A stretch of DNA of 40,000 bases, taken from Myxacorys californica WJT36-NPBG1. Lineage in GTDB: Bacteria > Cyanobacteriota > Cyanobacteriia > Leptolyngbyales > Leptolyngbyaceae. The translations under genes were made by a program, and so were the position numbers. Of this stretch, positions 3,427 to 25,673 are shown one piece after another. Positions within the stretch are counted from its first letter, which is position 1. Each line of letters begins with the position of its first letter. The notes beneath the pieces are model-generated. The model ran no database searches. It had not been told where the DNA came from and saw only the letters and a program-made list of their open reading frames with translations. The DNA is taken from positions 18,078-58,077 of the forward strand of contig JAHHHO010000021.1 in assembly GCA_019359315.1 (NCBI GenBank), read 5' to 3'.

Positions 3427-5634
3427 TTATATTAGGGTTTGAAGGATCTCCCTAATAACTCCACTTTTGCCGCGACAGGCTACGGGTAGCACCTGTCCTG
3501 CAAGGGTACTATCTCTTTGGAGTTCAGAGACAATACTGCTAAGGTCGTGTCCCATATACCCGGTAATAACAACAATCAGGTTGCAATTGCTAATTCTGCT
3601 CTGAACATTACTACGGCTAATGTATGCATCACTGGAAGGCGCTACTTCGACAACCTCTTGTATTCGATAAGTTGAAGTTAATTCCCGAATCACTTCGCGT
3701 CGAGTTGCCTCATGCCCACCAACCAATGCCAAACGTAGAGACGAAAGGTCAGGCACAGTCTCTTCGCTGTCCTTAGAGGAATGAGCTTGGATACCAAGCT
3801 TTGTTGCTTCATCTCTGCTCTGTTGCTGGTATTCAATGAGTTGAGGGACGATATCTGGGCTGAGGTAATAAAGAGCACGTTTTAAGTCTTGGAAAAAAGG
3901 CTCTTCGGAACGACCTTGCCGTATAGCGTTATCAATTTCTTCGATCGCAATTCCTTGATACTCATTAGCCAGACTCGAACGTAGTTTTGGCAGAAGAGCA
4001 ATATAGGGTTCAAGCCCTTCCAAAAGTTCAAAGTGCTGTCCACGGTTGATTTGTTGACTTGCAGCAATAGTGCGTAAGTGGGCTAACTCAAGCTCTAGGT
4101 CATCCATCCACTGCTGGTTAGCTAGCCAATCCAGCCAATCGGCATAAGCAATGATGAATTTATCTAATCGATTTACTTGTTTCCAGAGCTTTGCTCGCTC
4201 TTTCAGGATGTCCTCAGCATTGGGTAGAGTAGCAACTCTTGAACCTGCTACCTCAATGCACTCCTCATAGTAACTAACCTCCTGCTCATTAGATATATCG
4301 CCAAAACCTCCCAAAGATGAGAGTGTGGCAATGTTCGCTCTGTCTTCAAGTGACAAATGCTCAGGGGCAATATCTAAAAGAATTAAATAAATTTCTGCTG
4401 CATCTTCAGGATTACCCTCTGTAGACCAAAGACGAGCTAAAGGCAGTAGTATTTCATATTGACGCTCTCCTGCTTGCCAAGCACTCTCTAGAAGCGGTCT
4501 AGCTTGAGATCTTTGCCCCATTGCATAAAGGGCTGCGCCCTTTAAGCCAGCTAAAGTGGAAGGGAGTGTAGCAATCGGTTCTGGTAGAAAGTCAATGACT
4601 TCTTTAAAGCGGCTACCAGATAGCAGGAGTTCTACCTGTCGAACTTTGACAGTATCCTGATCTTTTTCAGTTTTAACAGGAATTGATTGGTACAGTTCTA
4701 AAGCCTTGTCTTCCTCTCCGACTGCTGTATAGGCTGCTGCTAAATCAAGTAAAACAGAAGTTGATTGGGGATGTTTGACCTTCAATGCCTCTAGCTGAGG
4801 AATACGCTCTCCAGGTTCCACCTTCACTAATTGAGCCAGTTGCTCACTAAGAGTAGCATCGGCTACTTGTTCCATAGGCTCTTGCGGCTTGAGCGCCTGG
4901 TGCAGGAGCCGCCGTACTCCATCGGCCTGACGAATACGCTCCAATTCAGGTAGAAACTCTTGAGCGATTTGCTGGGCTGAAAGCATCAACTCTGGCATAT
5001 TTTCTTGCTGAGCCTCTTGCAGGTAGGCAGAGACAATCTGTTCAACCAACCTTCCAGAGACAGGTAAGGCTAAAATTTCATCGCGCTTGGTTGAACAAAG
5101 TTCGATGATTTGAGCTGCTTTAGCGGTACGAGTGTAAAGGGTAATCAAAGCACGCAAAGCATTGCCGTCACCAGAACTCGATTGCTGAAGTAATCGTTCT
5201 TCCGCTTCTACGATTTGCCCTTGGCTAATTTGTTGCTCTAAACGGCTTGGATTAATGCTTTGTACAGTACTGGTTGGCCGTGGAATATCCTCATTAAGTT
5301 GTTTGAGAATGTTGCGAAATTGAGTTTGCCAGGATTTGAACGTTTGAACTGCTTTTGCTGATTGTTCGGAGTAGTCAGCTTCTACCTTAGAAGTATTGAG
5401 AAGATAGGCTGCTTCAATGGATGACCACGTTTGCCTTAGATTTTCCTCAGTAGTGGTGACGTAGACGAAATGGGTGTACTCTCCATGATGGGAGGGCATT
5501 AATTTAGTAGCCTTGAATTGTTCCCGAATTGCCCGGTGTAACTCCTCTGCCTGTAGCTCACTAATGCATTTAAGGCGTAATCCTATCTGGTCAGCACCTC
5601 CAAGTTTTGGAACAATCTCATACTGAAATTTCAT
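3427..5634 (-). CDS. Large helical-repeat (TPR-like) protein with a C-terminal DUF2325-like domain; last gene of the helicase-PLD operon
   Basis: 735 aa. The centre has TPR-like helical repeats (e.g. 'AAAYTAVGEEDKALELYQS', 'GAALYAMGQRSQARPLLESAWQ', 'PEDAAEIYLILLDIAP'). The C-terminal ~100 aa 'LRLALVGGHEATRREV...CNLIVVITGYMGHDLSS...ACRGKSGV' resemble DUF2325. Its start overlaps the upstream PLD gene stop by 4 nt (5631-5634). Confidence 0.55.
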   Translation of the reverse strand: MKFQYEIVPKLGGADQIGLRLKCISELQAEELHRAIREQFKATKLMPSHHGEYTHFVYVTTTEENLRQTWSSIEAAYLLNTSKVEADYSEQSAKAVQTFKSWQTQFRNILKQLNEDIPRPTSTVQSINPSRLEQQISQGQIVEAEERLLQQSSSGDGNALRALITLYTRTAKAAQIIELCSTKRDEILALPVSGRLVEQIVSAYLQEAQQENMPELMLSAQQIAQEFLPELERIRQADGVRRLLHQALKPQEPMEQVADATLSEQLAQLVKVEPGERIPQLEALKVKHPQSTSVLLDLAAAYTAVGEEDKALELYQSIPVKTEKDQDTVKVRQVELLLSGSRFKEVIDFLPEPIATLPSTLAGLKGAALYAMGQRSQARPLLESAWQAGERQYEILLPLARLWSTEGNPEDAAEIYLILLDIAPEHLSLEDRANIATLSSLGGFGDISNEQEVSYYEECIEVAGSRVATLPNAEDILKERAKLWKQVNRLDKFIIAYADWLDWLANQQWMDDLELELAHLRTIAASQQINRGQHFELLEGLEPYIALLPKLRSSLANEYQGIAIEEIDNAIRQGRSEEPFFQDLKRALYYLSPDIVPQLIEYQQQSRDEATKLGIQAHSSKDSEETVPDLSSLRLALVGGHEATRREVIRELTSTYRIQEVVEVAPSSDAYISRSNVQSRISNCNLIVVITGYMGHDLSSIVSELQRDSTLAGQVLPVACRGKSGVIREILQTLI

Positions 5635-6182
5635 GACAGTTGCATCGCCTGTTCAAAATGTTGCACACAGATTTGTCGTAGCTCGGCGATACTCCGTTCA
5701 TCATGGCAGTAGGTATATAATTCAGCGTTTTGATTAACTCCGCCATCAGTCAGGTTCAAAGAGCCATCGAGCCCACCATAACGACCCACGTAAGCTTTGG
5801 CATGCAATGTAGATAGAACCCGCACTTGAATGCGATCGCTGCGACTAGCCAGCAGTTTCAACGCAGAGTGATAATCTGTATCGCTGCCAACGGTAATGTA
5901 GATTCTTCCACCGTTTGCCGAGATTTGATGGAGTACGTCAAACAAGTGCAGCGAATCCTGCTTAGTCTCCACAACCTCCTGGAATGAGACATAGTAGGGA
6001 TTAGCTAGCCGGAAGTTTGTAACCCAAGGCGCAACAATCCAAAATTCATAGTCACCTCCCAGCTGAGAGGCAAGCACCTCGTTCAGCAGGAAGTTGTAAA
6101 TCATTGCTTGACCACTACGTTGTAGGGTCGATCGCTTTGCCATAGGATAGACCTCACTCAATAGGACGTACAGTAACTTCAA
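5631..6182 (-). CDS. PLD-superfamily (Nuc/DrmC/DpdK-like) nuclease
   Basis: Single HKD-type motif 'LHAKAYVGRYGGLDGSLNLTDGG' (HxK ... GSxN). The likely true start is ATG at 6143 ('MAKRSTLQ'), 10 nt after the helicase stop at 6154-6156 and preceded by GAGG. Confidence 0.7.
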   Translation of the reverse strand: MKLLYVLLSEVYPMAKRSTLQRSGQAMIYNFLLNEVLASQLGGDYEFWIVAPWVTNFRLANPYYVSFQEVVETKQDSLHLFDVLHQISANGGRIYITVGSDTDYHSALKLLASRSDRIQVRVLSTLHAKAYVGRYGGLDGSLNLTDGGVNQNAELYTYCHDERSIAELRQICVQHFEQAMQLS

Positions 6183-9100
6183 TGATGGGCGGCTGATTAA
6201 CCGTCAGGTCAGTTGGATAAATGGTTTGAATATCAGTGATCATGGGATAGACCATACCCAAATCTGTGTCGATTCCAGCATCGGTTAGGTAACTGATCGC
6301 CGCACAAAGAGAGGAGAGGCGATCGCTAGGGACACGGAGGTAAACTGCCTGATACCCTTTCTCCAGCAAGAGTCGAATCTGCTCAGAGATAGGAGTGGGT
6401 GATACTGTTGGGTCACCGATACCATCATCCAAGTTCAAGGTTTGGTTAGAGCGGGCTTGAGTTAGCCAGTCGCTGAGTAGAGAACGGTTCAGGAGATTAC
6501 GACTCAGTCCAGGAGCTTCAATATCGCCGCCCCGATCATCCAGACAACTTGGGCAGCTACAACGGCAATTTATCAGCATCCGTCGTTCTACGGCTGATTC
6601 AAATGCTCGACGTACTTCTGCTGTGTTCGAGTTGTATTCAAGTCTATACAAACGAAGCAAACGGGTGAGTTCAGGATAGGGTGATGAAGTATCTGGCTGA
6701 CTTAGAGCAGATGCAATTGTGCGATAGAGGGTAGCTCTTGCTTCCGCAAAGGATGGCTCACGACCAAATTGCTGAGTGCAGGTAGGAAGAAAAACTTGAT
6801 TAATTTCTCTGAAAATACACCAGTTTATCAGGCGACTCCCGTCAATTTGCTGAGCGTAGTCAGGGATAAAGACCCTGAGTAATGCTTTCAGATGTTTCTG
6901 CTGAACAATAACCTGCATTCGCTGGCGGACTTCAGACAATAATGCCTCGATCGCAACTTGGCGATCGCTAGAACTGCGAGATTGAATCAGCGCATCAACC
7001 AGTACCTCACATTGGGCTAGCCAGTCTTCGGGTTGAGCCAATAGATGACGAAGAAACGCTTCTTCCTGGGCAGTGGGGCAATAGGTCATTCGGTGCGCCA
7101 GAGTTGTCCAGAAACGGTCTGGGTTCTTCCGAAGCAGGTCTTGAGTTGCCCGCATTACCCCAATACCACCCATACCAATTTCATAAAGCCAGATACGATT
7201 GTCAGTCCGGTTATCAAAGTCAAGCCGCAGTCTAGTCCAAGCAGAAACGTAATTTAGAGCCTCGACCCCTGCGACCTCCTGGGCAACTTGCTTCAAAGCC
7301 TGAGTCAGGCTGTACTGGAAACTATCATAAAGATAGTCCTGGTAAAGATCCCCGTTGGTTTGTATCTCCTCATAAAGATCCAGAAAGACTGCCAAATAAT
7401 TATTAGGGCTGGTAATCAGTTGCAGAACGGCTTCACGTTTCTTCGGCGACAACTGGTGGATTTCATTAATGGCTTGAATAGATCGGCGGTTAAACTCGTT
7501 GTTGCCTGCAACAAACCAGGCTCGCATCCCTTCTAGAGTGCCTCCTTGTTGGTGACACCAACCATCTGCAACGGTTAGAAGGACATCTGCTAAGTTTTCC
7601 GCAGCAAAATAGTTTTCCCTATACTCATCCTCAATAGTCAATTTCGTGATAAAAGCGTGGCGAATTGCATTACTCCGAAAATTGGCGCGAGTAGAAAATG
7701 AGAGTATGGCATCTGAGATAGCATCGGGTTTGATTTCAACACTGATACCTTCAGTAATGAGTTGATACCCCAATGCACAGTTACTCATATTATTCTCATT
7801 AGCTGTAAAGCCAACAACCCCTCTGATGTCGTCTGCTCTCGACTCATGGAATTTCAACGTATACTGGCTACCGAGAATGATGCGACGAACATCCAAGAGA
7901 TTCAAGTTATCCGGTTCATCGCTATACAACACAATTTCCTGAACTAAATTTTCCCCAAGACTGTCACATGAGACGGATTGATTGCTTGTTTTAAGTGTGT
8001 ATTTAGCTGTTGGGGTATCACCTATAGGTCGGACATAGATGGCACTGATGGACTGTGCTGAGCAGGAGTGAGCTAGTTGAACCATATCCTGCGGCGCATC
8101 TTGTTGGCTACGGCATTCACTCAATTCTCCTGTATCAGGATTGCAGTACCAGAACGAAGAGTTGTAATCCCGGCTGAACTGTTTGGGTTCAATTTGAGTA
8201 GGACGATAAACTGTCAAAAATTTTCCACTGCGAGGCGTAATCCCAACTAACTTGAGTGCTCGTTTAGGCAGATTAGCAGTGCTTGGATTATTCTCAATCT
8301 GGTCTTTTGCAGTGTAGTACTGGTTCAGAGGTAGCAGAGACTGCCCATCCGCAAGAAGAGGTGGTATCCATGTCGAGCCTTCGCCACCCCGAAAGGTTAC
8401 ATTACCAGGGATCGTCTCACTGATAGCCAAACTAATACTCTCTGGATCAAGCCGTTTGTTGAAGCGGTGATCATCAGGGCGATAGTCTACCCGAACTTCT
8501 GGCAGATTGATGTCTGAGAATAGATTATCAGGCAGATGTTGAGTTAGCCTCTCACGCGCCTTAACCATTGGCTTGTTCTCTCGATCAAATTCTGGATGTA
8601 CTGCTGTCATCAAGCCTTCGCAAAAGATGCTCCAGAGGAACCCATCTGAGTCAGGATCGCCCAGAACTCTCAGTAAAGCGTCGTTATCAACGATCGCGAA
8701 CGATTCCTGTAAGTAGTCCTTAAAAGCAAACATCATGCCTGCATTGGCTGTTTGGTCTAACAGGTACTGATAACCCTGCCGCGACAGCCTCTCTAGATTG
8801 AGTTCTACACCCGCAAGATTTGCTCGGTAAGCCAACCAATCAAATAGTGCATAGAATCCATGGATTCGTTGAAGATAGCGATTTTGAGCATTGAGAGGCA
8901 GCTTCTGAAATGTGGGATCTGTCAGTACATGCTCGTTGCGAAACAGAAATAAATCTGTTGGTTTATAAGGACTAAGAACTGTAGCTACGATCGGTCGTGT
9001 GCCTACTTTTCGCCCACCTCTTCCCTTACGTTGAACAAAGCTGGCAACATTAGCAGGTGCGGTGTATTGAATAACGCACATGAGTGCTTCATCGTCGTAG

Positions 9101-11142
9101 CCAACTTCTAACGCACTGGTTGTAATGACGAGATCATCATCTTCCTCAATGACAATAGAGCGATCGCTCCCTGACTTGCGCTTGATGTTGAGAGGCTGAC
9201 TACGTGCTTTATCTTTTTGACTCAACACCCACCAGCACTCCCCAGCTTGAAAGAGAGGACAAGTTGGGTCAGGCGTGCAACTATTTTCGCAATTGCAGTT
9301 GTACTGGGTAGTAGGACCAAAAAAGTTAGGAAAGAGTAGGCGGTTAAAGGGTGGGTAACGGTAGGCATATAAGGGAACATACCTGATTGGGTAGGCATCA
9401 TCAGTAGGTCGAATTCCCTGGCTCTTCAATTGTTGCCGTCTCTCAATTTGGTAGTCCTTGACCTTTTCAGCATCTTGCACCTGATACAGCCAACGACCAA
9501 CGATATCCAAAGATTGCACAAAACCGAAGGTACGATAACGATTCAAGCCGCTACCTGCTACCGGCTGCGGCATCGTGTGTAGCACACACATTGCTGTTTG
9601 AATTAACGATGAAAGCACCGCTGTATCTTCGGTATTTTCAGCACGAGCAAAGATAAAACGCTCTGCCCCAATAATCTGCATCTCATTGTCTTGAGGTTTA
9701 ACCTCCTCGATCCGCACTGGGTCAATACCGGAAAGCTCGGATAGGAATTGTTTAGGATGGGCGATCGTCGCACTCAGACCAACAAAGGCAAGATTGGCTT
9801 GTTCTTGGCGATCGCGCTTACCCGTACGAATCCGTGATAGGAGTCGGCGCAGCAGAAGAGCAACTTGAGTTCCTGCTGTGGAAGTTTGCAAGTGAATCTC
9901 GTCCAGCATCACTACAGAAGGCGCGCAGAAGGTTGTAGTCCCGAACAGGTACTGGTACTTTGAAGAGATCAATCGCCGATGAAGAGATTCTGTAGTAGCG
10001 ATCAGAAGATCCGGCGGTTGCTTCTCCATCAAATCCCGAGCAAATTTGATGAAGGGATAAGTCTTTTCACACTTAGGACAGACCAGGACTTCAGGTTGAG
10101 TCGGACGAGCAAGAAGTCGTTGAGGAGTTGTATTGCAGCCACAACCCGGAGTTCCTACACAGTAAGCAAAAGGTGACAGATAGCCCTTATAATCCTCGCT
10201 AAAATTCCAACCTCTTTGCTTAGCAAGTTTTTGTTGCTGAGAGTCATCTACCTTTTGAAAATCACTTACTTGATAAACAGCCGCTCCGCTTTCCACACCT
10301 ATGGTAATTGCAGGAAGGTTGTTGGCAGCTAGTACTTGGTTTAGATGATAGAGAACCTCAATAAAATCTGTAAGTTGGTTTTCTGAGAGAGCAACTCGTG
10401 GGTAAATACAGATTGCTTTGACTCCAATCTTTTTCCGAAGACAGCGCTCAATAACCATTTTGGCTAGCACTGGAAGGAAAAAGGCGTAGGTTTTCCCAGC
10501 TCCTGTACTAGCAGTAACAACAACCCCCCTCTCAATACCCTGTTGTGAATCTAGTTCGATCGCCTGCAAAATAGCCCTGAGTGTTCGACGTTGAAAACCA
10601 CTCATCTGCTGCAGTTTTGTTAGGGTCTGCTCAATGACTGTTAACAGAAGATTAGCAGCCTGCTGTTGTTCTGAATTGCCGGAGAGTAATAGCCCCATGC
10701 ACGTCCGGACAGAGACATTGCGTCGTGGAACCCGGCGAGAGGCAACGCTAAACTTTACATCTTCTATAAGTCGCTTACTTTTACTGATACGATGGGCGAC
10801 TTTAACAGGGTTTTCGTTAACGATACGTTGACGCAGCTTGGTTAAGAGCCGAACTGTCTCTGTAATCCGGCTTCGAAAAATCCAGTTCTCAGGCGATTCC
10901 TCATGATCAAATCGAATAATTTGAAGCTCATTAGCAAGTTTTTGTAGAGCTTGAATAACTGCTGAGTTTTTCTCTCCTACTGATAACTGAATATCATTAG
11001 ATGGCTGGAAGTTTTGAACAACTTCACTTCCTGTCAATGTCAAATCGTAGATGCCATAAGCGATTTGCTCAGCCTCGCGCTGTTCAATGAATGTAAGAAC
11101 CTCATCAGCTAGATTTCCTACAGTTTTTATATCTAAGCTCAT
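6154..11142 (-). CDS. Giant SF2 DExH helicase with a C-terminal DUF1998/MrfA-type zinc-binding Cys cluster (DrmA+DrmB / DruE / DpdJ-like)
   Basis: 1662 aa. Motif I 'TASTGAGKTYAF', motif II 'MLDEIH', motif III 'LSATI', motif VI 'FVQRKGRGGRK'. A Cys cluster 'CRCSCPSCLDD' lies about 150 aa from the C-terminus, where DUF1998 proteins carry theirs. Confidence 0.8.
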   Translation of the reverse strand: MSLDIKTVGNLADEVLTFIEQREAEQIAYGIYDLTLTGSEVVQNFQPSNDIQLSVGEKNSAVIQALQKLANELQIIRFDHEESPENWIFRSRITETVRLLTKLRQRIVNENPVKVAHRISKSKRLIEDVKFSVASRRVPRRNVSVRTCMGLLLSGNSEQQQAANLLLTVIEQTLTKLQQMSGFQRRTLRAILQAIELDSQQGIERGVVVTASTGAGKTYAFFLPVLAKMVIERCLRKKIGVKAICIYPRVALSENQLTDFIEVLYHLNQVLAANNLPAITIGVESGAAVYQVSDFQKVDDSQQQKLAKQRGWNFSEDYKGYLSPFAYCVGTPGCGCNTTPQRLLARPTQPEVLVCPKCEKTYPFIKFARDLMEKQPPDLLIATTESLHRRLISSKYQYLFGTTTFCAPSVVMLDEIHLQTSTAGTQVALLLRRLLSRIRTGKRDRQEQANLAFVGLSATIAHPKQFLSELSGIDPVRIEEVKPQDNEMQIIGAERFIFARAENTEDTAVLSSLIQTAMCVLHTMPQPVAGSGLNRYRTFGFVQSLDIVGRWLYQVQDAEKVKDYQIERRQQLKSQGIRPTDDAYPIRYVPLYAYRYPPFNRLLFPNFFGPTTQYNCNCENSCTPDPTCPLFQAGECWWVLSQKDKARSQPLNIKRKSGSDRSIVIEEDDDLVITTSALEVGYDDEALMCVIQYTAPANVASFVQRKGRGGRKVGTRPIVATVLSPYKPTDLFLFRNEHVLTDPTFQKLPLNAQNRYLQRIHGFYALFDWLAYRANLAGVELNLERLSRQGYQYLLDQTANAGMMFAFKDYLQESFAIVDNDALLRVLGDPDSDGFLWSIFCEGLMTAVHPEFDRENKPMVKARERLTQHLPDNLFSDINLPEVRVDYRPDDHRFNKRLDPESISLAISETIPGNVTFRGGEGSTWIPPLLADGQSLLPLNQYYTAKDQIENNPSTANLPKRALKLVGITPRSGKFLTVYRPTQIEPKQFSRDYNSSFWYCNPDTGELSECRSQQDAPQDMVQLAHSCSAQSISAIYVRPIGDTPTAKYTLKTSNQSVSCDSLGENLVQEIVLYSDEPDNLNLLDVRRIILGSQYTLKFHESRADDIRGVVGFTANENNMSNCALGYQLITEGISVEIKPDAISDAILSFSTRANFRSNAIRHAFITKLTIEDEYRENYFAAENLADVLLTVADGWCHQQGGTLEGMRAWFVAGNNEFNRRSIQAINEIHQLSPKKREAVLQLITSPNNYLAVFLDLYEEIQTNGDLYQDYLYDSFQYSLTQALKQVAQEVAGVEALNYVSAWTRLRLDFDNRTDNRIWLYEIGMGGIGVMRATQDLLRKNPDRFWTTLAHRMTYCPTAQEEAFLRHLLAQPEDWLAQCEVLVDALIQSRSSSDRQVAIEALLSEVRQRMQVIVQQKHLKALLRVFIPDYAQQIDGSRLINWCIFREINQVFLPTCTQQFGREPSFAEARATLYRTIASALSQPDTSSPYPELTRLLRLYRLEYNSNTAEVRRAFESAVERRMLINCRCSCPSCLDDRGGDIEAPGLSRNLLNRSLLSDWLTQARSNQTLNLDDGIGDPTVSPTPISEQIRLLLEKGYQAVYLRVPSDRLSSLCAAISYLTDAGIDTDLGMVYPMITDIQTIYPTDLTVNQPPIIEVTVRPIE

Positions 11143-11275
11143 AGAATCATTTATATTAATGCAGCGATTTGGATAACATCAAAATCAGGATATTTATACA
11201 TGAGCATTGAAATTTCAAGATTAGAGTTGTCTGACTTAAAGAAGTTAAAACACCCTCGACAAATAATGCGATCAG

Positions 11276-12361
11276 CTAAGGATATCTCAGTTTGACTCCC
11301 TTTCCACCATTTGGAGTATTGCAATCCCAACGAAGATCACAAATTGCACAATCCTTTTCACTAATATCACCGGGTATAGCTGATTGCCAGTTTCCAGTAA
11401 CACGTGCTTGCTCAATCTGCATTACGGTCTTAGCAAATTCAATTACTGCATTATCAATTTCAGTTGGAAGAATACTAACTTCAATAAGAGCATTTACTGG
11501 TTGCTTTGAGGGACATGTAGGACCATCTAACTCGTTTAGAAAATACAGAATTGCTCTCCGTGGTAAAACTCCATGTTTAAGTTCATACAACTTGGCATAA
11601 ACTCTCATTTGGAACTCATAATTTTCTAGATCCTTAGGATTTAAGCCAACCCTTGTACTACCTTTGTAGTCCCACATTTCGTAGTCCTCGGGAACTCCAG
11701 CTGAAGTCGTAGGGTCCACAAGCAAATCAACTACACCATGCAAAATATGATTAGTTCTATCTGCCTGCAACCTATGTTCTGTGTCTATGACTCGTGGATA
11801 AAGAACTGGTCCTTCTAATGCATTGAAATACTGGAGAATTCGTACAACTTGCAACCGATTATCCGATTTAATGGCTCGAATTCCTCTACTCTTTAAGCCA
11901 TTTTCTACCTCAACAAAATATTTGACAATATCACTTGGAGGTGTAGGAGGAGCAGTACTCAATTTTTCAGCAATTCTTAGTTCATCAAAATAATCAAGAA
12001 TATCTTGATCACCAAGGATTTTGCCATTATCAGGTAGTAAACCCTTTGTTGCAGGATCAATAATACCGTGAAAATGAGAATGGCAACGGTCTAAAACTTG
12101 GTGCAGAGTAGTCCCAAAATATGTTTGTGTTTGGTAAGCAGGAGCATATTTGTGTACGTTAAAAGTTCCATACTGACGGGCACACCGCCGAAACGGAACA
12201 ATATCTTGCGTAATGCTATACCGCCGTTTCACTGGTGGAGTAGTTGGCAAAGGGACGGAGATACCACTGAATGGTTTTTTCATGATCAGTAATTGTTGAG
12301 TTCTATATGGCAACAGTATTTCGTCGGAATTCAACGTGGTCACGACCAGGAACCGGAACAC
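11276..12361 (-). CDS. PD-(D/E)XK nuclease with Cas4/AddB-like 1+3 cysteine arrangement
   Basis: 'HGVVDLLVD...MWDYKGS' gives a D...(D/E)xK core. One upstream Cys ('FRRCARQY') plus the C-terminal 'CAICDLRWDC' match the Fe-S pattern of Cas4/AddB nucleases. The probable real start is ATG at 12283 ('MKKPFSG'), 20 nt after the UvrD stop. The 12361 start would overlap UvrD by 59 nt. Confidence 0.65.
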   Translation of the reverse strand: MFRFLVVTTLNSDEILLPYRTQQLLIMKKPFSGISVPLPTTPPVKRRYSITQDIVPFRRCARQYGTFNVHKYAPAYQTQTYFGTTLHQVLDRCHSHFHGIIDPATKGLLPDNGKILGDQDILDYFDELRIAEKLSTAPPTPPSDIVKYFVEVENGLKSRGIRAIKSDNRLQVVRILQYFNALEGPVLYPRVIDTEHRLQADRTNHILHGVVDLLVDPTTSAGVPEDYEMWDYKGSTRVGLNPKDLENYEFQMRVYAKLYELKHGVLPRRAILYFLNELDGPTCPSKQPVNALIEVSILPTEIDNAVIEFAKTVMQIEQARVTGNWQSAIPGDISEKDCAICDLRWDCNTPNGGKGVKLRYP

Positions 12362-14582: not shown

Positions 14583-14623
14583 TGCTCAGATTTTTGAAGG
14601 GGCTGCTATTTTTTGGCTTTGCT

Positions 14624-18391: not shown

Positions 18392-19309
18392 CTAACTAAT
18401 TGAAGAGCTAACGACCTCCTGAAGAGCATTTCGATGTCCAAATCTTTGGTAGTCGTAGCGGGCATCCCACCAAAGCCAGTTAGTTGAATCTGCCCAAACG
18501 TTATGCTTTTTAAGTACTTCAAGGCGAGTGAGGGCCAGTCCTCCCAGTACGAGGTCGGGACGGCTCCAAGTGAGGAGATCGTCAAGTTGCTCATTAGAAA
18601 GCCCAAATTTTAAGCCGGTTGGCATACTGGGATCTGACTTGAGCAGGCCACCAAGGGCAATGTATTGGTAGCCGATGTTGCGATATTCACTGATGAGCGA
18701 TGATAAAAAGCTTCGAGGGGAGTTGTAGTGAGGAGGCAGTGCATCTTTCTGAGGAATGGGTTGACGGTTTTGCCACTTATAGAGGGCATCACCCACCTGC
18801 ACTACTCCAATTAGCTTGAATTCTCTAGGTCTCTGAGAGTATTCCTGCCATGCCAGACGGGCTAAGTGTAAAGATAGTAAAGGTTCACCAAATACATCAG
18901 GAGCAAGAACATAATCAGGGGAGACTTCTATGCACTGAGCAAAAAAGTTCTTAATGTTCTGCATCAATTTTTCTCTGCCAGCTAAAGCTTCTCCATGCAC
19001 CCAACGCCCATTTTTGTATTCTGCGTAATTTTCCACATACCAGGTAGAGCCTCTCTTCTCAAAAACATCACTGTCTAAGAAAAAGGGCTTCCCTGTGTCG
19101 CGGACACTTCTAAGAAAGTTTTTTGAACAAGATGAAAGAGGAGCCAGAATCCCAAATTCACCATCTATCTCCTTAGCTTTTCTTAATAAACCAAACCAAT
19201 CCATAGCTAAAACAGGAAAAAATTCCCTTTCATCGACAAGACAGACTAGTATGGCGTGCCACAATATGTCAGGTAGCGAAATGTACCATAGCAAGAGAAA
19301 ATTACACAT
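18392..19309 (-). CDS. Divergent TGT/DpdA-like transglycosylase paralogue (no C-terminal zinc Cys cluster)
   Basis: Its motifs are colinear with the two other TGT-like genes. These are 'FFLDSDVF' (vs DSGAH / DCGAF), 'LIGVVQVGD' (vs WGVVQGWD / MGVAQGWN) and 'YIALGGL' (vs YLAIAG / YVALGGL). The last is 'NVWADSTNW' (vs TSFDSSTW / TSFDSASP). An alternative start is ATG at 19204 ('MDWFGLL'). Confidence 0.55.
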   Translation of the reverse strand: MCNFLLLWYISLPDILWHAILVCLVDEREFFPVLAMDWFGLLRKAKEIDGEFGILAPLSSCSKNFLRSVRDTGKPFFLDSDVFEKRGSTWYVENYAEYKNGRWVHGEALAGREKLMQNIKNFFAQCIEVSPDYVLAPDVFGEPLLSLHLARLAWQEYSQRPREFKLIGVVQVGDALYKWQNRQPIPQKDALPPHYNSPRSFLSSLISEYRNIGYQYIALGGLLKSDPSMPTGLKFGLSNEQLDDLLTWSRPDLVLGGLALTRLEVLKKHNVWADSTNWLWWDARYDYQRFGHRNALQEVVSSSIS

Positions 19310-19327
19310 CGTTCCTGTTATACATAT

Positions 19328-20509
19328 ATGAGGGAAGAGGATGTTCTTCTAAAAACACATAGTTTTCTTAAGGCGCAAGGATTAAACGGGCAGTCTATAG
19401 TTCGTCTTTATACTGATGCGCATCATACCTTGTTGAAGAATCAAAAACTTCAACCGTTCCAAAGATTCACATTAAACATGGGAGACTTTGTACTTCATCC
19501 AGATTTAGTGGGTCAATTAGATGATGGTGAGTCGATATTTGCTCTAGAGGCTAAAGGGGCTGTCGGTACTAGTGAGTTAGTAAGGGGGCTAGCACAAGCT
19601 GAGCTATATCAGTCAGGATTCCACTATTCATTTTTAGCTACAGTAGTAAATGGTTTAGGAGAAAACTTACTGCAATTCGCTCGCCGTAAAAATATAGGAG
19701 TTATTGCAGTGAGCGAGGATGTAAAAATTTTAAATTTTCCAGAAGCACAGATGCCGTTTCGGAAAATCTTCCAAAGTATCGCACGGCAGATGGAAACGGT
19801 TATTCAGATTACAGAACAGCAAACTTTTCAGTATAATGCTCCCACTCATTATATGGTCTGGTCAGTAATATTAGAGCCACATATTGAATATGAAATAAGT
19901 GGAATTTCTAAGCTTCTAGAAAATTACCCTATACCCGAAGGCAAAAATAAAGATGGTTGGAAAGCGACCTTAGCAGGAGCAAGGAAATTAGGAATCGTCA
20001 ATCGTTCGGGAAATTTAATTAAGTTAACACCTATTGGTGAAGCTATTAAAGATATTCTAAGAACAAATTTAGATGAATGGATAGATGTACATGAAAAGGC
20101 TGGAGGTAAGAGAAGAAAGTACTATCTATTTGAGTATAAACCTCAAGCGGCTGCCTGTCTTCGCTTATTGCTTCTTCAAGAGCCAATACTCAATCTAGTA
20201 ATAGAGGGGCTGAAAAAATTTCCAAACTTTTCAACTACCTTTTCTGAGCTGGCAGTAGTCTGTGATGGGCTAGATCATGCTAGAGCACCTATTTTCTTCC
20301 TTAAACCAGAGGCTCTGGAATCATTAATCGATAGTAATGGACATATTGATTGGGATAAAACTGAGCCTAGAAATTATCGGGGTAGGATGTTCTTTCAATA
20401 CAAAAGAATTCTCCAACATGCTGGAGTCATAAAGCCTGATGTTTTAGGTGGTAGTAGCGTCAAAGAATATGAGAAAAATATAAGCAGAGACATTTGGACA
20501 TTAATTTGA
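19328..20509 (+). CDS. Protein with an N-terminal PD-(D/E)XK nuclease-like motif and a possible C-terminal winged helix
   Basis: 'FVLHPDLVGQLDDGESIFALEAKG' gives a PD...ExK arrangement. 'ARKLGIVNRSGNLIKLTPIGEAI' is wHTH-like. Its 3' end overlaps the next TGT-like gene by 16 nt. Confidence 0.45.
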   Translation: MREEDVLLKTHSFLKAQGLNGQSIVRLYTDAHHTLLKNQKLQPFQRFTLNMGDFVLHPDLVGQLDDGESIFALEAKGAVGTSELVRGLAQAELYQSGFHYSFLATVVNGLGENLLQFARRKNIGVIAVSEDVKILNFPEAQMPFRKIFQSIARQMETVIQITEQQTFQYNAPTHYMVWSVILEPHIEYEISGISKLLENYPIPEGKNKDGWKATLAGARKLGIVNRSGNLIKLTPIGEAIKDILRTNLDEWIDVHEKAGGKRRKYYLFEYKPQAAACLRLLLLQEPILNLVIEGLKKFPNFSTTFSELAVVCDGLDHARAPIFFLKPEALESLIDSNGHIDWDKTEPRNYRGRMFFQYKRILQHAGVIKPDVLGGSSVKEYEKNISRDIWTLI

Positions 20510-21498
20510 AGCCTTTATATTTTCTTCCATGGTGGCCATCTGACTATATTTGGAAGGAGTGGAACACTTCATTTGATATGGGTAGGATGACCGGATGGAC
20601 GAAGACATATTTGTGGGAAGTACTACCTAATCTAATTGATGGAATTGTTGTGTCTCGAATGGCTGTTTCTCTGAGACAAATCAAGTTACTTCGGCAAAAA
20701 CTTCGCTTTACCGGAGTAATTTTAGGAGACTCTGGAGCGCATTCTTATCGAAATTATGAGCACCCCCCATTTTCATGTGAAGATGTCTTAGAGTTTTATG
20801 CTCAGGGAGATTTTACCTATGGTTTAACCGTTGATATGGTTGCTTCTCCTTGGGTGCGTCCAGGAGGTTTGTCAGACGACGAATTGCAGAGTAGATTAGC
20901 GCTAACCATCAATAATGCTGAACGCTGTTTAGAGCTACATGAAAGGTATAATTATCCATTTACTTTATGGGGGGTTGTACAAGGTTGGGATGTCACAAGC
21001 TATCGATCGTGTGCTAAAGCTTTGCTCAAACTTGGGTTTACTTATTTGGCGATCGCGGGTCAACGGAAGCTCTCTTTAATCAGGGATGCAATAGATGCTG
21101 TTTCAGAAGAAGCACATCAACTTGGCAAGAAGATAAACATTCATGTATTAGGAACAGGAAATCCTAAAATTCTTGAGTTCTATATCCAAAAAGGCATTAC
21201 TTCATTTGATTCATCAACCTGGTTACGTAAAGCTTGGCTGAGTGAAAAGCATAATTACTTTCTTGTAACCGGAAAACATTATGATGCTTATCGAGCAACA
21301 AGAGTTGGATTAGGGGAATTTGATGTAAACAAGTTGAAATGGGATATAGAAATCAACTGCTCTTGCTATTTCTGTCGGAGTCTAGGACAACAAATTCTAT
21401 TATTTAGAGGACATGAAAGAAATACTCGAAGAGGGTTCCATAATATCTGCCAGTATGTTCAATTGCTCAAAGCACACCGGAAAGATGCTTTAGTCTAG
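20494..21498 (+). CDS. TGT/DpdA-like transglycosylase paralogue (short form, with Zn Cys cluster)
   Basis: 'LYFLPWW' (cf. 'YYIPEWDD' of the fusion protein), 'VILGDSGAHSY', 'WGVVQGWD', 'YLAIAGQ', 'GITSFDSSTWLRKAW', and the C-terminal 'CSCYFCRS...RGHERNTRRGFHN' (CxCxxC...H). Confidence 0.65.
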   Translation: MDINLKPLYFLPWWPSDYIWKEWNTSFDMGRMTGWTKTYLWEVLPNLIDGIVVSRMAVSLRQIKLLRQKLRFTGVILGDSGAHSYRNYEHPPFSCEDVLEFYAQGDFTYGLTVDMVASPWVRPGGLSDDELQSRLALTINNAERCLELHERYNYPFTLWGVVQGWDVTSYRSCAKALLKLGFTYLAIAGQRKLSLIRDAIDAVSEEAHQLGKKINIHVLGTGNPKILEFYIQKGITSFDSSTWLRKAWLSEKHNYFLVTGKHYDAYRATRVGLGEFDVNKLKWDIEINCSCYFCRSLGQQILLFRGHERNTRRGFHNICQYVQLLKAHRKDALV

Positions 21499-23554
21499 AC
21501 AGTTGTTCAGAACCTTGGTCAAGGTTCTCTTCTAGAAGAGCTTTGAACCGCTTATAGAAAACATAGGTATTGTGAAAACCTCGCCTACGGTTGCGATCGT
21601 TATTTCTAAAAATGACTGTTTCAATGCCCAATTCTTGACATATTAGGCACTTACATGAATTCCAAGGCTTTTCTTTAAGTATTTCTAGATAGAAAGGTTC
21701 AAGATCTATAGACTTCTTTGAATCAGTTTTGTTTTCTTGCTCTTCGATCAGCTTGCTGTAGGTCAGTACTGTTTTTAGTGTGGTTTCCAAATCCAGTGTT
21801 CCTACATCAAATTGTCTTAAAGCGTCCAGTGCTTCTTGTTCATATCTCTTAAAAGTTTCTAAATCGACAGAACCACTTTCAAGAGCACGCTTTATTTTTA
21901 ATCCTCGCTCTGTTGGGGGGACTCTGATAGCCATGAAAGTTTTGCTCGATAGAGTGTGATAGTTTTTTGTACCAGATAACCATGCTTGTCTCAGTGGACT
22001 TGCTGAGTCAAAACTCGTAACTCCCAAATGCCGAAATACTGGAATTGCCTCAATCCGAGCAACCCCAAACAAATGCAACCGCACATTTGGTTTGAGATGG
22101 GGAGAAATTGCCTTCAGGATTGGTACAATCTCCTTTGTTTGTGCACGAGCTAATCCACCTAGTGCCACATAGTCATATCCCATGCCAATTACTTCTTTCA
22201 CAGCATTGGCATAGGACTCTGGGTTCCACCCTTGAGCCACACCCATTGGAGTAAACGTATATCCTAATTCTCGATGCTTCTTGATAAAGTCTTCAGCATT
22301 CTTCAGCGTAATTTCGTACCGTTTTTCCCGTTCGCCTGGTTGAGCAAAGGGACCCACAATCAGATGGTCAATACTCACTCCATAGTTAAATCCCAAATTT
22401 TCGTAATACTCTAAAATTTCATCGGTATTGTATGGGGGCACTTCTTCCTTGATGTAACCAAATGCTCCACAATCTCCCATGATTTGCCCCGGAAACCGGA
22501 TGAAATTGTGGATTCCACCTGCTGCTTCCACCCGTGCCCGTTTTGTTTTGCTCTCATCAACCACGACTTTAGAGACTAAAATTCCGTCGTAGTTCGGTGA
22601 TGGATAAATCTCGTGAGCATAGATGTCATTATAGGGATCTCGACCTGGCGTGAGAGTATCGGTAAGAAAGCCATAGTTTGGATCTACGCGATCGTCCCAC
22701 TCTGGAATGTAATATTGCATTCCCAAGTGAACATTAGGTGCTGGCGGGCAGGGAGGAATGGCTAAATAGTCCTCCGTTTGGGGCTTAATAACTTGTTTAG
22801 AAGCCTTTTTAGCCGAAGGGATGGACAACCCCAATGTCAACTCTAACTGGGTCTCCTGCTGGTCGATCACTTTCTGAAAGACAGTTGGCTCCTCATAAAC
22901 CGTTTTTAATAATTCAGCGTCCTTACAGACTGCTTCTGCAAATCGTTTGAACAGAAATCCCTTTAACCCAACCAACCCATAGCGATAACGTTTTGCATCA
23001 GTATTGGACAACGGCAATATAAAAGTCTTCGCTGCTAAAGTCCTGATAAATCGAGTACTACTGTTAGATGCCAAAAATACTAACGTCTGGTCTGGTCTGG
23101 TTTCGACAGGCAGTGTCAGCGATCGTAGATAGTTCTCTCCTAGCAGTAAGAAAATGAGGTTATAAGGGGTGATCGCTTTCTCAAACGTACTATGCAAGTC
23201 GAGGGATCGTGCCCAATCATCTACTTCATTTACCCTCATGTTATTGAAGGTGACCTCATAAGGCGCGATCGCCCAGTTCTCCTCAATTAGCCCATACCCT
23301 GCTGACAAAATCGCGACATCAACTGCATCTTGCCCTAAAGCCTGGCGCAACAGTTGCACACCCTCCATCAGTCGAAGGTGCTGCATCCCTGTGTACATTT
23401 TTCCAGCGGTACAAAGAAACTCAGCCAATTCTGCTTCCCGTCGCTGAAGATGTTCAGGATCTTTGAAGTCTGCTAGGGTCAGTTGATTCTCAGGCTTAGC
23501 ACATTTTTCTCCAGTGCAGGATGTAACAACAAGAACACTAGGGTGGGGCATCAA
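21467..23554 (-). CDS. dpdA: DUF6884-like N-terminal domain fused to a DpdA-type DNA-guanine transglycosylase
   Basis: 695 aa. The N-terminus has '[11 protein letters not shown]...MYTGMQH...[22 protein letters not shown]', a DUF6884-like pattern. The C-terminal ~420 aa have '[16 protein letters not shown]', '[10 protein letters not shown]', 'MGVAQGWN', 'YVALGGLA', '[15 protein letters not shown]' and 'CKCLICQE...[13 protein letters not shown]'. Its start overlaps the queC stop by 4 nt (23551-23554). Confidence 0.75.
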
Positions 23555-23825
23555 AGCTCCTTACAAATAGCGACCAAATGACTAGGAACCGGAATGGAGG
23601 GTTCTAATTCCTGGTTATATAGCTCCCGTCCGATCGGCGTTGCTAAATCCGGTCTGCCTGCTTCGATCAGGGCACGATCGCGAATCCAGCAAGAGTCGCA
23701 CAACCCACAGGGTTCATCTTCTCCTTGATAACAAGACCAGGTGAGTTGAATGGGTAAACCCAATTATAATACCCGTTGCACAATGTCTACTTTGGAATCC
23801 ATCACCAGTGGAGCAACGAGCTTAG

Positions 23826-23973
23826 CCCTCATTTGTCACTCTCGCTAAAGCGAATTCTGAAACCTAGGCTTGGGGCGAGTTTCCTATTTTGAGGGCTCGA
23901 AAATGACAAAAGAGCAAAACGGAGATGCAGCAATGCTTTCAGCTTTTGCTCCTGCCAGAGTGACAAATGAGGG
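23826..23973. mobile_element. 148-bp MITE with perfect 17-bp terminal inverted repeats, inserted in queC
   Basis: TIRs are CCCTCATTTGTCACTCT (23826-23842) and AGAGTGACAAATGAGGG (23957-23973). They are flanked by the direct repeat TTAG (23822-23825 and 23974-23977), which fits the YTAR target duplication of IS5-group elements. No ORF inside. Confidence 0.8.
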
Positions 23974-24219
23974 TTAGAAGCATTTCCTTCTAGTCCAGCT
24001 TTGGAAGAGAGAGTGGCAAGGTGCTGAACAGCGTCCAGATACTCTGGTCGGCAGTCAGGATAGCCGGAGTAGTCCACTGCATTGATCCCCAGATAAATTG
24101 CTTCGGCTCCTTTGGCTTCTGCTAGGGAGAGAGCGATCGCCAGAAAGACTGTATTCCGTCCTGGTACATAGGTAATGGAAATGACACCAGGTTTAGCACC
24201 GTTAGTAGGCACGTCTATA

Positions 24220-24380
24220 AAACCCATTTGGGATCTTTTCCCGTGATACTTGGCTTTGAAGGAAGCCGTTACTCTGCGATCAATGGTAGAGCCTTCCTAG
24301 CAAAACCGTTTTCTGCCAAAAAATGAAGAAAACCAGCTAGCTGCAAGGCTTGTGATTTCAGGATTAGATCCCAAATGGGT
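24220..24380. mobile_element. ~161-bp MITE (different family) inserted in queC
   Basis: Inverted repeat CTATAAAACCCATTTGGGATCT (24215-24236) vs AGATCCCAAATGGGTTCTATAG (24366-24387), 21/22. The direct repeat TCTATA at 24214-24219 and 24381-24386 is the likely target duplication; its exact boundary is ambiguous because it overlaps the TIR. Removing 167 nt restores the queC frame. Confidence 0.7.
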
Positions 24381-24632
24381 TCTATAGCCTGGTCAGTGAG
24401 AGCAGAACCACCCCACTGCGCCAAATTCACATCTACCACAAAATGTTCCTTGATCCCCAAATGCTCAGCCACCCGCTTAGCAGCAATGAGTTCGCGATCG
24501 TGCCTTTGTCCGTAGTGGAGCGACAGGGCAATCAATTCGTAACCATCGGTGATCGCTTGAGCAGCAGAGGTTGATGAATCCAGACCACCAGACAATAAAA
24601 CAATGGCTTTGGAAGCACTCATAGGTTCACTC

Positions 24633-25272
24633 TTATCGAATATTGGTGAATTTGTAGGTTTGTAAACTGATCCGCCATTCTGGATGGCTGAGAACGTACT
24701 CAAAGATGGGTGAGTAGCTATCAGATGTACCCCATTCTGGTTGGAGAAGCCTGACTGCATCGGTTGGAATTTTGGTCGCGTAATCCTCCGCCCATACCAA
24801 GTCAGACTGGTTAGCAATTACAACCTTTAGTTCACTTACCTGTGGATAAATGCTTTCGTGCGGAGGCTCGGACTGTAGGGCAGAAGGTAATCCAGTCGAA
24901 GCTGCCACTGAAGGGGTGTGCTCCAGAGGTTCCTAGATGCACTCGCAGTCCTGCGACTCTTAACCCCCCATTGCTGAGGGAGGAAAGGTCATGCATCAGG
25001 GGTTCGCCACCCGTAATGACAACGATCGCTAGATTGACCGCTTTAGCTTCTGCAATTAGGTCGGCAGTAGGACGTTGAGGATGGCGACGAGCATTCCACG
25101 AATGCTTGGTGTCGCAGTAGGGGCAGCCTACGTCACATCCGGCTAGTCGAATAAAAAAGGCGTTCGTGCCTGTCCAGGCTCCCTCACTCTGAACCGAGTG
25201 GAAGGTTTCCACCACTGGCAGGACTGTCAAAGCTGTTTTAGAGGTTGAGGGAATGGGAATCAGGCTTGTCAT
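24633..25272 (-). pseudogene. queE: 7-carboxy-7-deazaguanine synthase (radical SAM) gene carrying a frameshift
   Basis: ORF 24832-25272 has 'FIRLAGCDVGCPYCDTKHSW', 'VVITGGEP' and 'GSFDWITFCPT'. ORF 24633-24908, in another frame, continues with '[19 protein letters not shown]...LLQPEWGTS...[13 protein letters not shown]'. Together they make a normal-length QueE. The frames differ by one extra nucleotide at about 24870-24890. Confidence 0.8.
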
Positions 25273-25283
25273 AACGATCGCTC

Positions 25284-25673
25284 CTAGTCGTCCTCGTACT
25301 CAACCCAAGAATTGGGCGTTTCGGACACAGCAACCTTCAACTTCACATCCGACAGCAATTGCTTCTTCGTCTTGTCGTAAATATATTGAGCAATCATCTC
25401 GGCAGTGGTTCCATAGCCTTCCGGCAGAACTTCGTTTAGAACCGAATGGTCGAGCCCTCCTTTGAGTAGGTCTTGCTTTGCCCAACGGAGCGTGCGGAAA
25501 TCAGCAACCATGACAGGATGAGGACAGTACTCGGAGGCATAGAGCTTATTAGAGGTTGCCTCAATTCGAACCTTATAGGTATGCCCATGCATCCGCCCAC
25601 ACGGACCGTTGTAGTCCCGGATGTAGTGAGCAGCATCAAAAGTAAACTCAGTGGTCAGTTTCCAGGTTGGCAT
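25284..25673 (-). CDS. queD: 6-carboxy-5,6,7,8-tetrahydropterin synthase
   Basis: 129 aa. 'FTFDAAHYI...GPCGRMHGHTYKVRIE' and 'LDHSVLNEV' are characteristic QueD/PTPS motifs. The ORF is intact. Confidence 0.85.
   Translation of the reverse strand: MPTWKLTTEFTFDAAHYIRDYNGPCGRMHGHTYKVRIEATSNKLYASEYCPHPVMVADFRTLRWAKQDLLKGGLDHSVLNEVLPEGYGTTAEMIAQYIYDKTKKQLLSDVKLKVAVSETPNSWVEYEDD

Follow-up and report, generated by a model that had tools for sequence, protein, structure and literature searches.

Myxacorys californica WJT36-NPBG1, a cyanobacterium of the Leptolyngbyales, carries on contig JAHHHO010000021.1 (assembly GCA_019359315.1) a gene island that we consider likely to be a cyanobacterial variant of the Dpd 7-deazaguanine restriction-modification system. 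The stretch analyzed here, referred to as the window, comprises 40,000 nucleotides of this contig (18,078 to 58,077); all positions below are those of the whole window, in which the island spans 3427-25673. The island encodes a DpdA-type transglycosylase fused to a DpdC-like domain, a DndB-type DGQHR protein, and a trio of a helicase, a phospholipase D (PLD)-fold protein and a tetratricopeptide repeat (TPR) protein, named J2, K2 and TPR735, which resembles the DpdJ-DpdK-DpdD segment of known systems. The family assignments, catalytic residues, pseudogenization, synteny and purifying selection that form the basis of this reading are observed. An earlier note on this DNA had proposed a Dpd-type island of noncanonical gene content, and that central inference holds; the island is modular.

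The gene map is based on a listing of open reading frames (ORFs) combined with Pfam, NCBIfam and PADLOC profile scans. Comparisons were made with the dpdA-K cluster of Salmonella enterica serovar Montevideo and with that of the Enterobacter cloacae plasmid pPOL9A (NZ_CP086409), hereafter Enterobacter. Related loci were collected by a genome scan with the DGQHR protein (tblastn and ORF clustering, with 10-kb flanks), which yielded 30 cyanobacterial loci. Full-text literature searches (DpdA with cyanobacteria; DUF6884) returned no description of this architecture, and the only survey found to cover cyanobacteria (PMC11888242) reports a single island, described there as without dpdC and any restriction genes; loci of this lineage have thus been missed or are under-described by current rules. 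The island is real and is probably an undescribed variant. The Dpd system itself is known; what is new, taken together, is the DpdC-DpdA fusion, the exchange of DpdB for a DndB-type protein, the paralogous J/K/TPR trio, a family of small transglycosylase-like proteins, and the pairing of a short DpdA with a 393-aa protein.

A DpdA transglycosylase fused to a DpdC-like domain

The ORF at 21467-23554 encodes a 695-aa protein whose C-terminal half is the DpdA domain. This domain scores 485 bits against the NCBIfam DpdA model (NF041059, equivalog cutoff of 200 bits) as compared with 35-51 bits against the Tgt and TgtA models of tRNA-guanine transglycosylases (TGTs), and aligns end-to-end with the S. 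Montevideo DpdA crystal sequence (PDB 7UI4, E = 3e-94). The same scores place a second, 334-aa protein of the island, described below, with DpdA rather than with tRNA-modifying TGTs (185 versus 43-44 bits). Asp95, Phe99, Asp130 and Asp256 all have equivalents in the fusion, which also keeps the CxCxxC...H zinc site; the roles of the three aspartates and of the CxCx2Cx22H zinc site are those described for DpdA (PMC10164549). Two further positions are substituted: His181 is Gln, as in tRNA TGTs, and Leu236 is Phe.

The N-terminal 278 residues of the fusion match DUF6884 (37.7 bits, cutoff 30), which is the Pfam domain of DpdC (PMC11888242); an older review assigns DUF328/YaaA to DpdC (PMC5699537). 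The same region matches three PADLOC DpdC models (best 6.5e-8, residues 9-111), has the CxxxK and LSAxxG family motifs, and compares by hhalign at 90.7% probability with the protein encoded directly upstream of Enterobacter dpdA. Its AlphaFold2 model (pLDDT 90.6) has YaaA (5CAJ) as the top PDB structural match, and the NCBIfam DpdC model gave no match to the fusion. By these family matches the island has a DpdC candidate in this DpdC-like domain, and the previous statement that none could be seen was wrong. The DUF6884-like fusion reported at the same time is real, with a DUF6884 domain and a true DpdA on one polypeptide, both above their cutoffs. Fused and split forms of DpdC and DpdA both occur in cyanobacteria.

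The version of the fusion recorded in a public gene-call collection, found by exact-protein lookup on a Logan contig assembled from SRR11678221, starts at the ATG at 23551; the protein starting at the upstream TTG has no exact match in that collection. The reported junction of queC stop and dpdA start is present, but with the recorded start the two genes overlap by 1 nt (TGATG) rather than by 4 nt.

Genes for preQ0 synthesis, two of them inactivated

The queD, queE and queC genes lie upstream of the fusion, as had been described; queD is intact, but queE and queC are no longer functional genes. The QueC profile falls in three ORF pieces and the QueE profile across two frames. Alignment to the intact orthologous operon of a Synechococcales metagenome-assembled genome (locus L002) places a 2-bp deletion in queE at 24875/24876, and two insertions and a nonsense codon (TAA at 23764-23766) in queC. 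One insertion, of 167 nt (24213-24379), has terminal inverted repeats CCCATTTGGGATC and a TATAGA duplication, and no further copy of it turned up in a search for copies. The other, of 153 nt (23826-23978), has 40-nt inverted arms and a CTAA target duplication; full-length copies with 83-87% identity were found in at least eight metagenome contigs by a one-arm search with local BLAST, and a two-arm metagenome search returned nothing. Because it belongs to a multi-copy family, the 153-nt insertion is identified as a miniature inverted-repeat transposable element (MITE). The island queE and queC are therefore pseudogenes. In the closest relative, locus L035 (GCA_053499575.1), QueC (240 aa) and QueE (221 aa) are both intact, and the queC and queE fragments compared with them have ratios of nonsynonymous to synonymous substitution rates (dN/dS) of 0.11-0.17, which indicates that inactivation was recent. 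The queD gene is 91% identical to the L035 copy, with a dN/dS of 0.06.

A DndB-type DGQHR protein and a conserved intergenic motif

The DGQHR protein aligns over its full length with Pfam DndB (PF14072, 249.5 bits, 6e-74). It scores 94.7 bits against the DGQHR domain model (cutoff 58.85) and 102.7 against the DndB model (cutoff 328), DndB being its best match in PADLOC and TIGRFAM; the DGQHR motif is at residue 109 and the NTPase motif is intact. Neither BLAST nor hhalign found similarity to the canonical Enterobacter DpdB. This rules out a DpdB orthologue, and the protein is a DndB-type paralogue within the same Pfam family; of its previous description as DpdB/DndB-like, only the DGQHR/DndB half is retained.

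The adjacent gene had been called a ribbon-helix-helix (RHH) module. The gene is there and is found in 22 loci, but its RHH match is weak (RHH_1, E = 0.13). The DGQHR and RHH-like genes are always divergently transcribed, and between them lies a motif of ~25 nt, TGCTACCATGTATGC[A/T]TGTATGCA, that hardly varies across the 15 inspected loci although the proteins of these loci are only 60-70% identical. The motif takes the form of a tandem 8-mer in most loci and is palindromic in the window copy. Its conservation and position make it a probable operator of the RHH/DGQHR region.

A helicase, PLD and TPR trio resembling DpdJ, DpdK and DpdD

DpdJ and DpdK are the top profile matches of J2 and K2 in both PADLOC and NCBIfam. 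J2 scores 521 bits against NCBIfam DpdJ (cutoff 800) and is 26% identical to Enterobacter DpdJ in the N-terminal half only, while K2 scores 77.7 bits against DpdK (cutoff 100) and is 24% identical to its Enterobacter counterpart. Related cyanobacterial loci have a second J/K/D set, with 27% (DpdD), 31-32% (DpdK) and 37% (DpdJ, full length) identity to the Enterobacter proteins, that continues with DpdH, G, F and E. Since the relatives' set is the closer one, J2, K2 and TPR735 form a J/K/D-like set of divergent paralogues, and the island lacks the canonical restriction operon. A DExH helicase of 1662 aa with a Cys cluster was correctly recognized in the earlier note, and the cluster (CRCSCPSC, 6544-6567) is absent from canonical DpdJ; no DUF1998/MZB match was found for J2, even when the C-terminus is scanned alone at E <= 10. 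The proposal that the trio forms an effector arm is likewise refined, as the helicase/PLD pair is DpdJ/DpdK-like and not an unrelated effector.

The gene order on the canonical Enterobacter plasmid is dpdE-F-G-H-(I)-J-K-D. Because DpdD comes right after DpdK in this order, TPR735, which directly follows K2 in at least nine loci, occupies the DpdD position, and it is of the same size as DpdD. With a deepened alignment, the last ~110 residues of TPR735, and only these, align with DpdD (hhalign probability 75%, E = 2.5e-5). The C-terminus scanned alone gives a sub-threshold match to DUF2325 (6e-4), and sub-threshold DUF2325-like matches are also found in TPR735 homologues and in DpdD homologues. 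A full-length DpdD was rejected: TPR735 has no BLAST identity to Enterobacter DpdD, a shallow hhalign comparison found no similarity, and neither PADLOC nor NCBIfam matched DpdD in the island. True DpdD homologues in relatives reach 98.9% in the profile comparison with Enterobacter DpdD. A TPR735-family protein, P0308, carries an N-terminal YaaA/DUF6884 domain.

Additional transglycosylase-like proteins

Two further TGT-like paralogues had been proposed, and they fared differently. The 334-aa protein, DpdA2, is DpdA-like, with an NCBIfam DpdA score just under the cutoff (185 versus 200 bits). It matches 7UI4 with E = 4e-37 and retains the Asp95/130/256 equivalents and the CxCxxC...H site; Phe99 is replaced by His and the helical Ins8 subdomain is mostly missing. 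It has about 30 close homologues. A phage-like DpdA was considered and rejected, the sole phage-database match being weak (32% identity over 54% of the query). Its partner unk393 has an invariant PD...E.K...Q motif, and searches of Pfam, PADLOC, NCBIfam and PDB sequences found no match, even with a five-sequence profile; the third of the nuclease folds claimed for the island is thus represented by a conserved motif only, whereas the PLD and PDDEXK_1 proteins are confirmed. The unk393-DpdA2 pairing is kept in L035, L036 and L037. In the metagenomic relative of the short DpdA (L036; JGI 3300018946, Ga0193599_1000065, 1-15082), genes for PLD, DpdD, QueC/E/D and FolE2 are followed by three DpdB-type genes, which lie beside a 422-aa DpdA, an unk393 and short DpdA pair, and a DpdC-DpdA fusion.

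For the 305-aa protein, unk305, the support is a profile-profile alignment and a predicted fold. Searches of Pfam, NCBIfam, PADLOC and PDB sequences returned nothing for it, and none of its 149 homologues has a Pfam domain; all those with a source name are cyanobacterial and annotated as "hypothetical protein". Compared by hhalign with a broad DpdA alignment (a shorter first alignment was also made), unk305 reaches 94% probability (E = 2e-8), with FxDSxVF paired with GDCGAF, SPD with SID, GVVQ with GVAQ, ALGGLL with ALGGLA and WADS with SFDS, and with all three catalytic Asp positions aligned. The AlphaFold2 model (36-sequence alignment, pLDDT 82) is a TIM barrel whose best PDB match in Foldseek is the TGT 1q4w (E = 1e-4), with unrelated TIM barrels close behind; comparison of the model with viral structures was uninformative. 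The protein ends short of any zinc site, the zinc subdomain being absent. It lies beside the DpdC-DpdA fusion in 13 of 14 loci and, among the loci compared, is confined to those of DndB type. Based on the alignment and the model, we identify unk305 as a putative mini-TGT with moderate confidence.

Conservation of the core and exchange of accessory modules

All related loci in the DGQHR scan are cyanobacterial, and the core architecture is present in at least 14-19 cyanobacterial genomes. The J2-K2-(TPR) set occurs in about 18 of the 30 loci, the DpdC-DpdA fusion in 14, and the pair of UvrD759 and Cas4-like nuclease in about nine; the trio and the fusion occur together within the 10-kb flanks in seven loci, plus L035. 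The components of the island therefore recur together in other cyanobacterial genomes, and this syntenic recurrence argues that the gene set is not a chance assembly. A link of the lineage to Dpd comes from some relatives in which canonical dpdD-dpdH separate the DGQHR gene from the fusion. Intact loci occur in Scytonema sp. NIES-4073 (plasmid1), Nostoc sp. LEGE 06077, Fortiea sp. LEGE XX443 and Aetokthonos hydrillicola.

A distant locus, L161 (Logan SRR34502225_15675), retains J2 (50% identity), K2 (41%), TPR (30%) and the fusion (39%), and its QueD-FolE2-fusion segment adjoins J2-K2-TPR without DndB or RHH. A CN_hydrolase (nitrilase-family) gene lies at 3515-4324 of this locus, between the DpdC-DpdA fusion and J2-K2-TPR; an enzyme predicted to act on nitriles next to a system built on preQ0, itself a nitrile, may point to a different deazaguanine derivative.

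The UvrD/Cas4-like pair, UvrD744 and the unk393-DpdA2 pair are lower-GC accessory modules (GC 0.38-0.40, compared with 0.44-0.51 for the core). The Cas4/AddB-like nuclease (GC 0.40) has the cluster CAICDLRWDC (CxxCx5C), and its partner UvrD759 (GC 0.39) has orthologues with 59-68% identity in L011, L012, L021, L024, L025, L030 and L037. UvrD744 (GC 0.40) has no orthologue in any fetched locus and no plasmid homologue at E <= 1e-30; in relatives its slot is occupied by other small genes. The UvrD759/Cas4-like slot holds a HerA-like ATPase (DUF87) and an uncharacterized 606-aa protein in L002 (6005-9631), and a HerA-like ATPase (DUF87) with an uncharacterized partner that has a faint NurA match in L037 (3635-6663), which suggests from gene content that the accessory helicase-nuclease modules are interchangeable.

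Relative to L035, all intact genes compared have dN/dS values of 0.05-0.19. Synonymous divergence ranges from 0.15 to 0.36 in the genes for the mini-TGT, DpdA2 and the fusion and is about 2 in DndB, the N-terminal part of DpdJ and unk393; this roughly tenfold gap between neighboring genes indicates that related islands have recently exchanged modules by recombination. The alternatives offered previously, a new subtype or a fusion of systems, are each partly true of an island with a conserved core and lower-GC accessory modules.

Comparison with known systems

The island shares with Dpd a DpdA-clade transglycosylase with the catalytic Asp residues and zinc site, a DpdC-family (DUF6884/YaaA-like) domain, a DndB-superfamily ParB-fold protein, adjacent preQ0 genes and, in the same order, a DpdJ-like helicase, a DpdK-like PLD protein and a ~730-aa protein with a DUF2325-like C-terminus. 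It differs in having DpdC fused to DpdA, a DndB-type DGQHR protein instead of the DGQQR-type DpdB, no DpdE-I, and divergent paralogues as its J, K and DpdD-position proteins (relatives have both sets). It also adds two TGT paralogues, an RHH-like gene and UvrD/Cas4-like accessories, and its queE and queC are pseudogenes. Phage DpdA systems (Hutinet 2019, PMC6884629; Cui 2023, PMC10516641) similarly have a DpdA-family enzyme beside preQ0 genes and no canonical DpdB, whereas the island lineage is chromosomal or plasmid-borne, cyanobacterial, and equipped with a restriction-type helicase/PLD arm.

Other defense systems share single features with the island. Class 1 DISARM (DrmA helicase, DrmB DUF1998, DrmC PLD) also has a large DExH helicase followed by a small PLD protein, and DrmA (2e-22) and DrmC (6e-4) appear as secondary PADLOC matches. 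The Dpd profiles score far better, and DISARM was rejected as the island ORFs include no methyltransferase, no DrmD/E and no DUF1998. Dnd/Ssp phosphorothioate systems have a DndB-type DGQHR protein like the 364-aa protein here, but no DndA/C/D/E, DndFGH or SspABCD was found in the Pfam, NCBIfam and PADLOC scans of the island proteins. Both UvrD proteins match GajB models of Gabija, without a GajA-like (OLD-family nuclease) protein. A further analogy, which we offer as a lead only, is the eukaryotic QTRT1/QTRT2 heterodimer, in which a TGT catalytic subunit is likewise encoded together with a divergent TGT-fold paralogue, as are the fusion and the mini-TGT; unlike that pair, the mini-TGT keeps equivalents of all three Asp residues and is without the zinc subdomain.

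Proposed mechanism and alternative explanations

In the mechanism that we propose, preQ0 was once supplied by the island queD, queE and queC and would now come from the host queuosine pathway, a supply made necessary by the inactivation of the island queE and queC. The DpdA domain of the fusion would exchange guanine in DNA for preQ0, and the DpdC-like domain on the same polypeptide would convert the nitrile to the amide (dADG). The DndB-type DGQHR protein would probably stand in for the DpdB ATPase, or else regulate the locus together with the RHH-like protein through the conserved operator. The TGT repertoire of this lineage would also include the mini-TGT encoded beside the fusion, and DpdA2 together with unk393, its partner with the PD-(D/E)XK motif. 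DNA without the mark would be acted on by the J2 helicase, the K2 PLD nuclease and the TPR/DUF2325 protein, with the UvrD/Cas4-like pair and the extra UvrD as presumed accessory cargo in variable slots. The chemistry, the discrimination of self from non-self and the protein-protein roles in this scheme are what we infer from the observations above. An extension of the scheme, to which we give rather little credence, is that each of the three TGT paralogues has its own 7-deazaguanine derivative, which it installs, reads or removes, or its own sequence motif as target, with the mini-TGT as a subunit of the fusion or a glycosylase-type effector and the DndB-type protein replacing DpdB as motor or regulator; these options for the mini-TGT are considered because it keeps the nucleophile and acid/base Asp residues while lacking the DNA-clamping zinc subdomain.

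Several observations weigh against reading the island as a Dpd variant. J2 and K2 fall under the equivalog cutoffs and are paralogues of the true orthologues held by relatives; TPR735 has no detectable DpdD likeness beyond its last ~110 residues and no PF28109 on record; no island protein matches Enterobacter DpdE, F, G, H or I, although relatives have DpdE/F/G/H; and modification would have to rest on unseen host genes. Canonical DpdB (DGQQR type) is absent from the window and from the related loci of the lineage, and base insertion in Salmonella requires the DpdB ATPase (PMC10164549). Finally, about 11 loci have DGQHR, J2, K2 and TPR genes with no fusion gene within 10 kb. This last point also favors an account, unlikely in our view though the strongest of the competitors, in which independent systems lie side by side: a modification-only DpdC-DpdA/mini-TGT unit, a helicase-PLD-TPR unit with DndB/RHH regulators, the UvrD/Cas4-like pair, the lone UvrD, and unk393-DpdA2. 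The independent gain and loss of modules across loci, their distinct GC contents, the tenfold differences in synonymous divergence from L035 with the recombination that these imply, and the replacement of the J2-RHH slot content in L002 would all be expected if the parts were separate. Such independence fits poorly with the distant L161 locus, where J2-K2-TPR again adjoins the fusion and que genes at 30-50% identity and without DndB/RHH, or with P0308, in which a TPR735-family protein is joined to a YaaA/DUF6884 domain; in addition, at least one apparently fusion-less locus has the fusion and mini-TGT on the same contig, past an inserted canonical dpdD-H block.

The four independent lesions in queE and queC, the flanking insertion sequence (IS) elements and orphan TnsD described below, and the absence of canonical dpdB and dpdE-I could alternatively mark a decaying remnant, eroded by mobile elements and no longer capable of DNA modification or restriction. 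We regard this as improbable, since the other twelve island ORFs are open, nine of these have an orthologue among the fetched loci and can be aligned with it over practically the whole length, and relatives of the UvrD/Cas4-like pair exist in L011 and L037. The dN/dS values likewise indicate purifying selection, and recent inactivation for the que fragments. The queuosine pathway is common in cyanobacteria, and a host copy would make the loss of the island que genes tolerable. Least probable of all, in our assessment, is that the DGQHR and RHH-like proteins are only transcriptional regulators and that base insertion by the fusion needs no ATPase partner and may be helped by the mini-TGT. DndB is a regulator in Dnd systems, and phage DpdA enzymes appear to insert the base without such a partner. 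The DGQHR protein is indeed nearer to DndB profiles than to DpdB, the operator-like motif in the divergent promoter region is strongly conserved, L033, L037 and L161 have the fusion with no nearby DndB-family gene, and the mini-TGT has been seen only in DndB-type loci. The intact NTPase motif of the DGQHR protein speaks against a purely regulatory role, as does L036, where a DpdB-type gene accompanies every one of the three TGT paralogues, which argues that bacterial DpdAs usually need such a partner. A Dpd variant with a DndB-type protein in place of DpdB remains the reading that we favor.

Feature map and flanking elements

The features of the island are listed in Table 1. The two UvrD-type helicases, the PLD protein, the PDDEXK_1 protein and the 1662-aa DExH helicase named previously are all present by Pfam. 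Rfam and tRNA scans of the whole window were empty and so gave no sign of a preQ1 riboswitch or a tRNA attachment site; the 19 HIP1 sites in the window mark the sequence as cyanobacterial.

Table 1. Features of the M. californica island in window coordinates
Feature	Position	Strand	Evidence
TPR735 (735 aa, TPR, DUF2325-like C-terminus)	3427-5634	-	TPR_19 1e-10
K2, DpdK-like PLD protein	5631-6182	-	PADLOC DpdK 1e-23; PLDc_2
J2, DpdJ-like DExH helicase, 1662 aa	6154-11142	-	PADLOC DpdJ 5e-160
Cas4/AddB-like PD-(D/E)XK nuclease, accessory	11276-12361	-	PDDEXK_1 1e-9
UvrD759, UvrD-family helicase, 759 aa, accessory, nuclease partner	12303-14582	-	UvrD-helicase 2e-51
Putative ribbon-helix-helix regulator, 78 aa	14624-14860	-	RHH_1 E = 0.13 only
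Operator-like motif, RHH/DGQHR intergenic region	14914-14949	.	Conserved in 15 loci
DGQHR protein, DndB-type, ParB-fold, 364 aa	14980-16074	+	PF14072 6e-74
UvrD744, second UvrD-family helicase, 744 aa	16105-18339	+	UvrD-helicase 2e-40
unk305, putative mini-TGT, 305 aa; start likely near 19204	18392-19309	-	Profile-profile alignment and predicted TIM barrel
unk393, 393 aa, PD-(D/E)XK motif	19328-20509	+	Motif only
DpdA2, short DpdA paralogue, 334 aa	20494-21498	+	NCBIfam DpdA 185 bits
DUF6884 (DpdC-like) + DpdA fusion	21467-23551	-	DUF6884 37.7 bits; NCBIfam DpdA 485 bits
queC pseudogene	23551-24622	-	Two insertions and nonsense codon
queE pseudogene	24633-25272	-	2-bp deletion
queD, 6-carboxytetrahydropterin synthase, intact	25284-25673	-	PTPS 1e-30

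A full-length gene for TnsD/TniQ, the target selector of Tn7-like elements, adjoins queD (25813-27762; Pfam TnsD 1e-122). One possibility is that it was left behind by a Tn7-like element with the island as its cargo. As an account of the present locus the cargo idea was set aside: a scan of the ten larger flanking ORFs found no TnsA/B/C, and related islands do not keep TnsD next to them. Upstream of TnsD, at 27812-28962, are two overlapping ORFs of 227 and 156 aa with no family match, the shorter of which has a D...EAK motif reminiscent of PD-(D/E)XK nucleases. Two IS elements flank the region (1096-2929 and 29463-30366), one of the ISL3 family with 50-nt inverted ends and the other of the IS4/IS5 family with perfect 30-nt inverted ends. 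Farther out, the gene at 33185-37027 encodes 1280 aa with a bacterial EndoU nuclease domain and could specify a polymorphic toxin, and an SLH/beta-helix protein with eleven 45-nt tandem repeats is encoded at 30450-32297.

Implications

Nothing in the island overturns current understanding of 7-deazaguanine DNA modification. No restriction-modification system larger than Dpd is known to us, and how the restriction half of Dpd works is not understood. The lineage described here pares Dpd down to the fusion, a DndB-type protein and the helicase/PLD/TPR trio, with some relatives restoring DpdD-H, so that natural minimal and maximal versions of the system are available for comparison. The MITE-disrupted queC, together with queE, shows that such islands can shed their own precursor genes. 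The analysis also exposes an unannotated TGT-like family of 149 homologues. This mini-TGT family, the pair of a short DpdA with a nuclease-motif protein, and a relative with three DpdB-TGT pairs suggest that several deazaguanine transglycosylases can operate side by side in bacteria.

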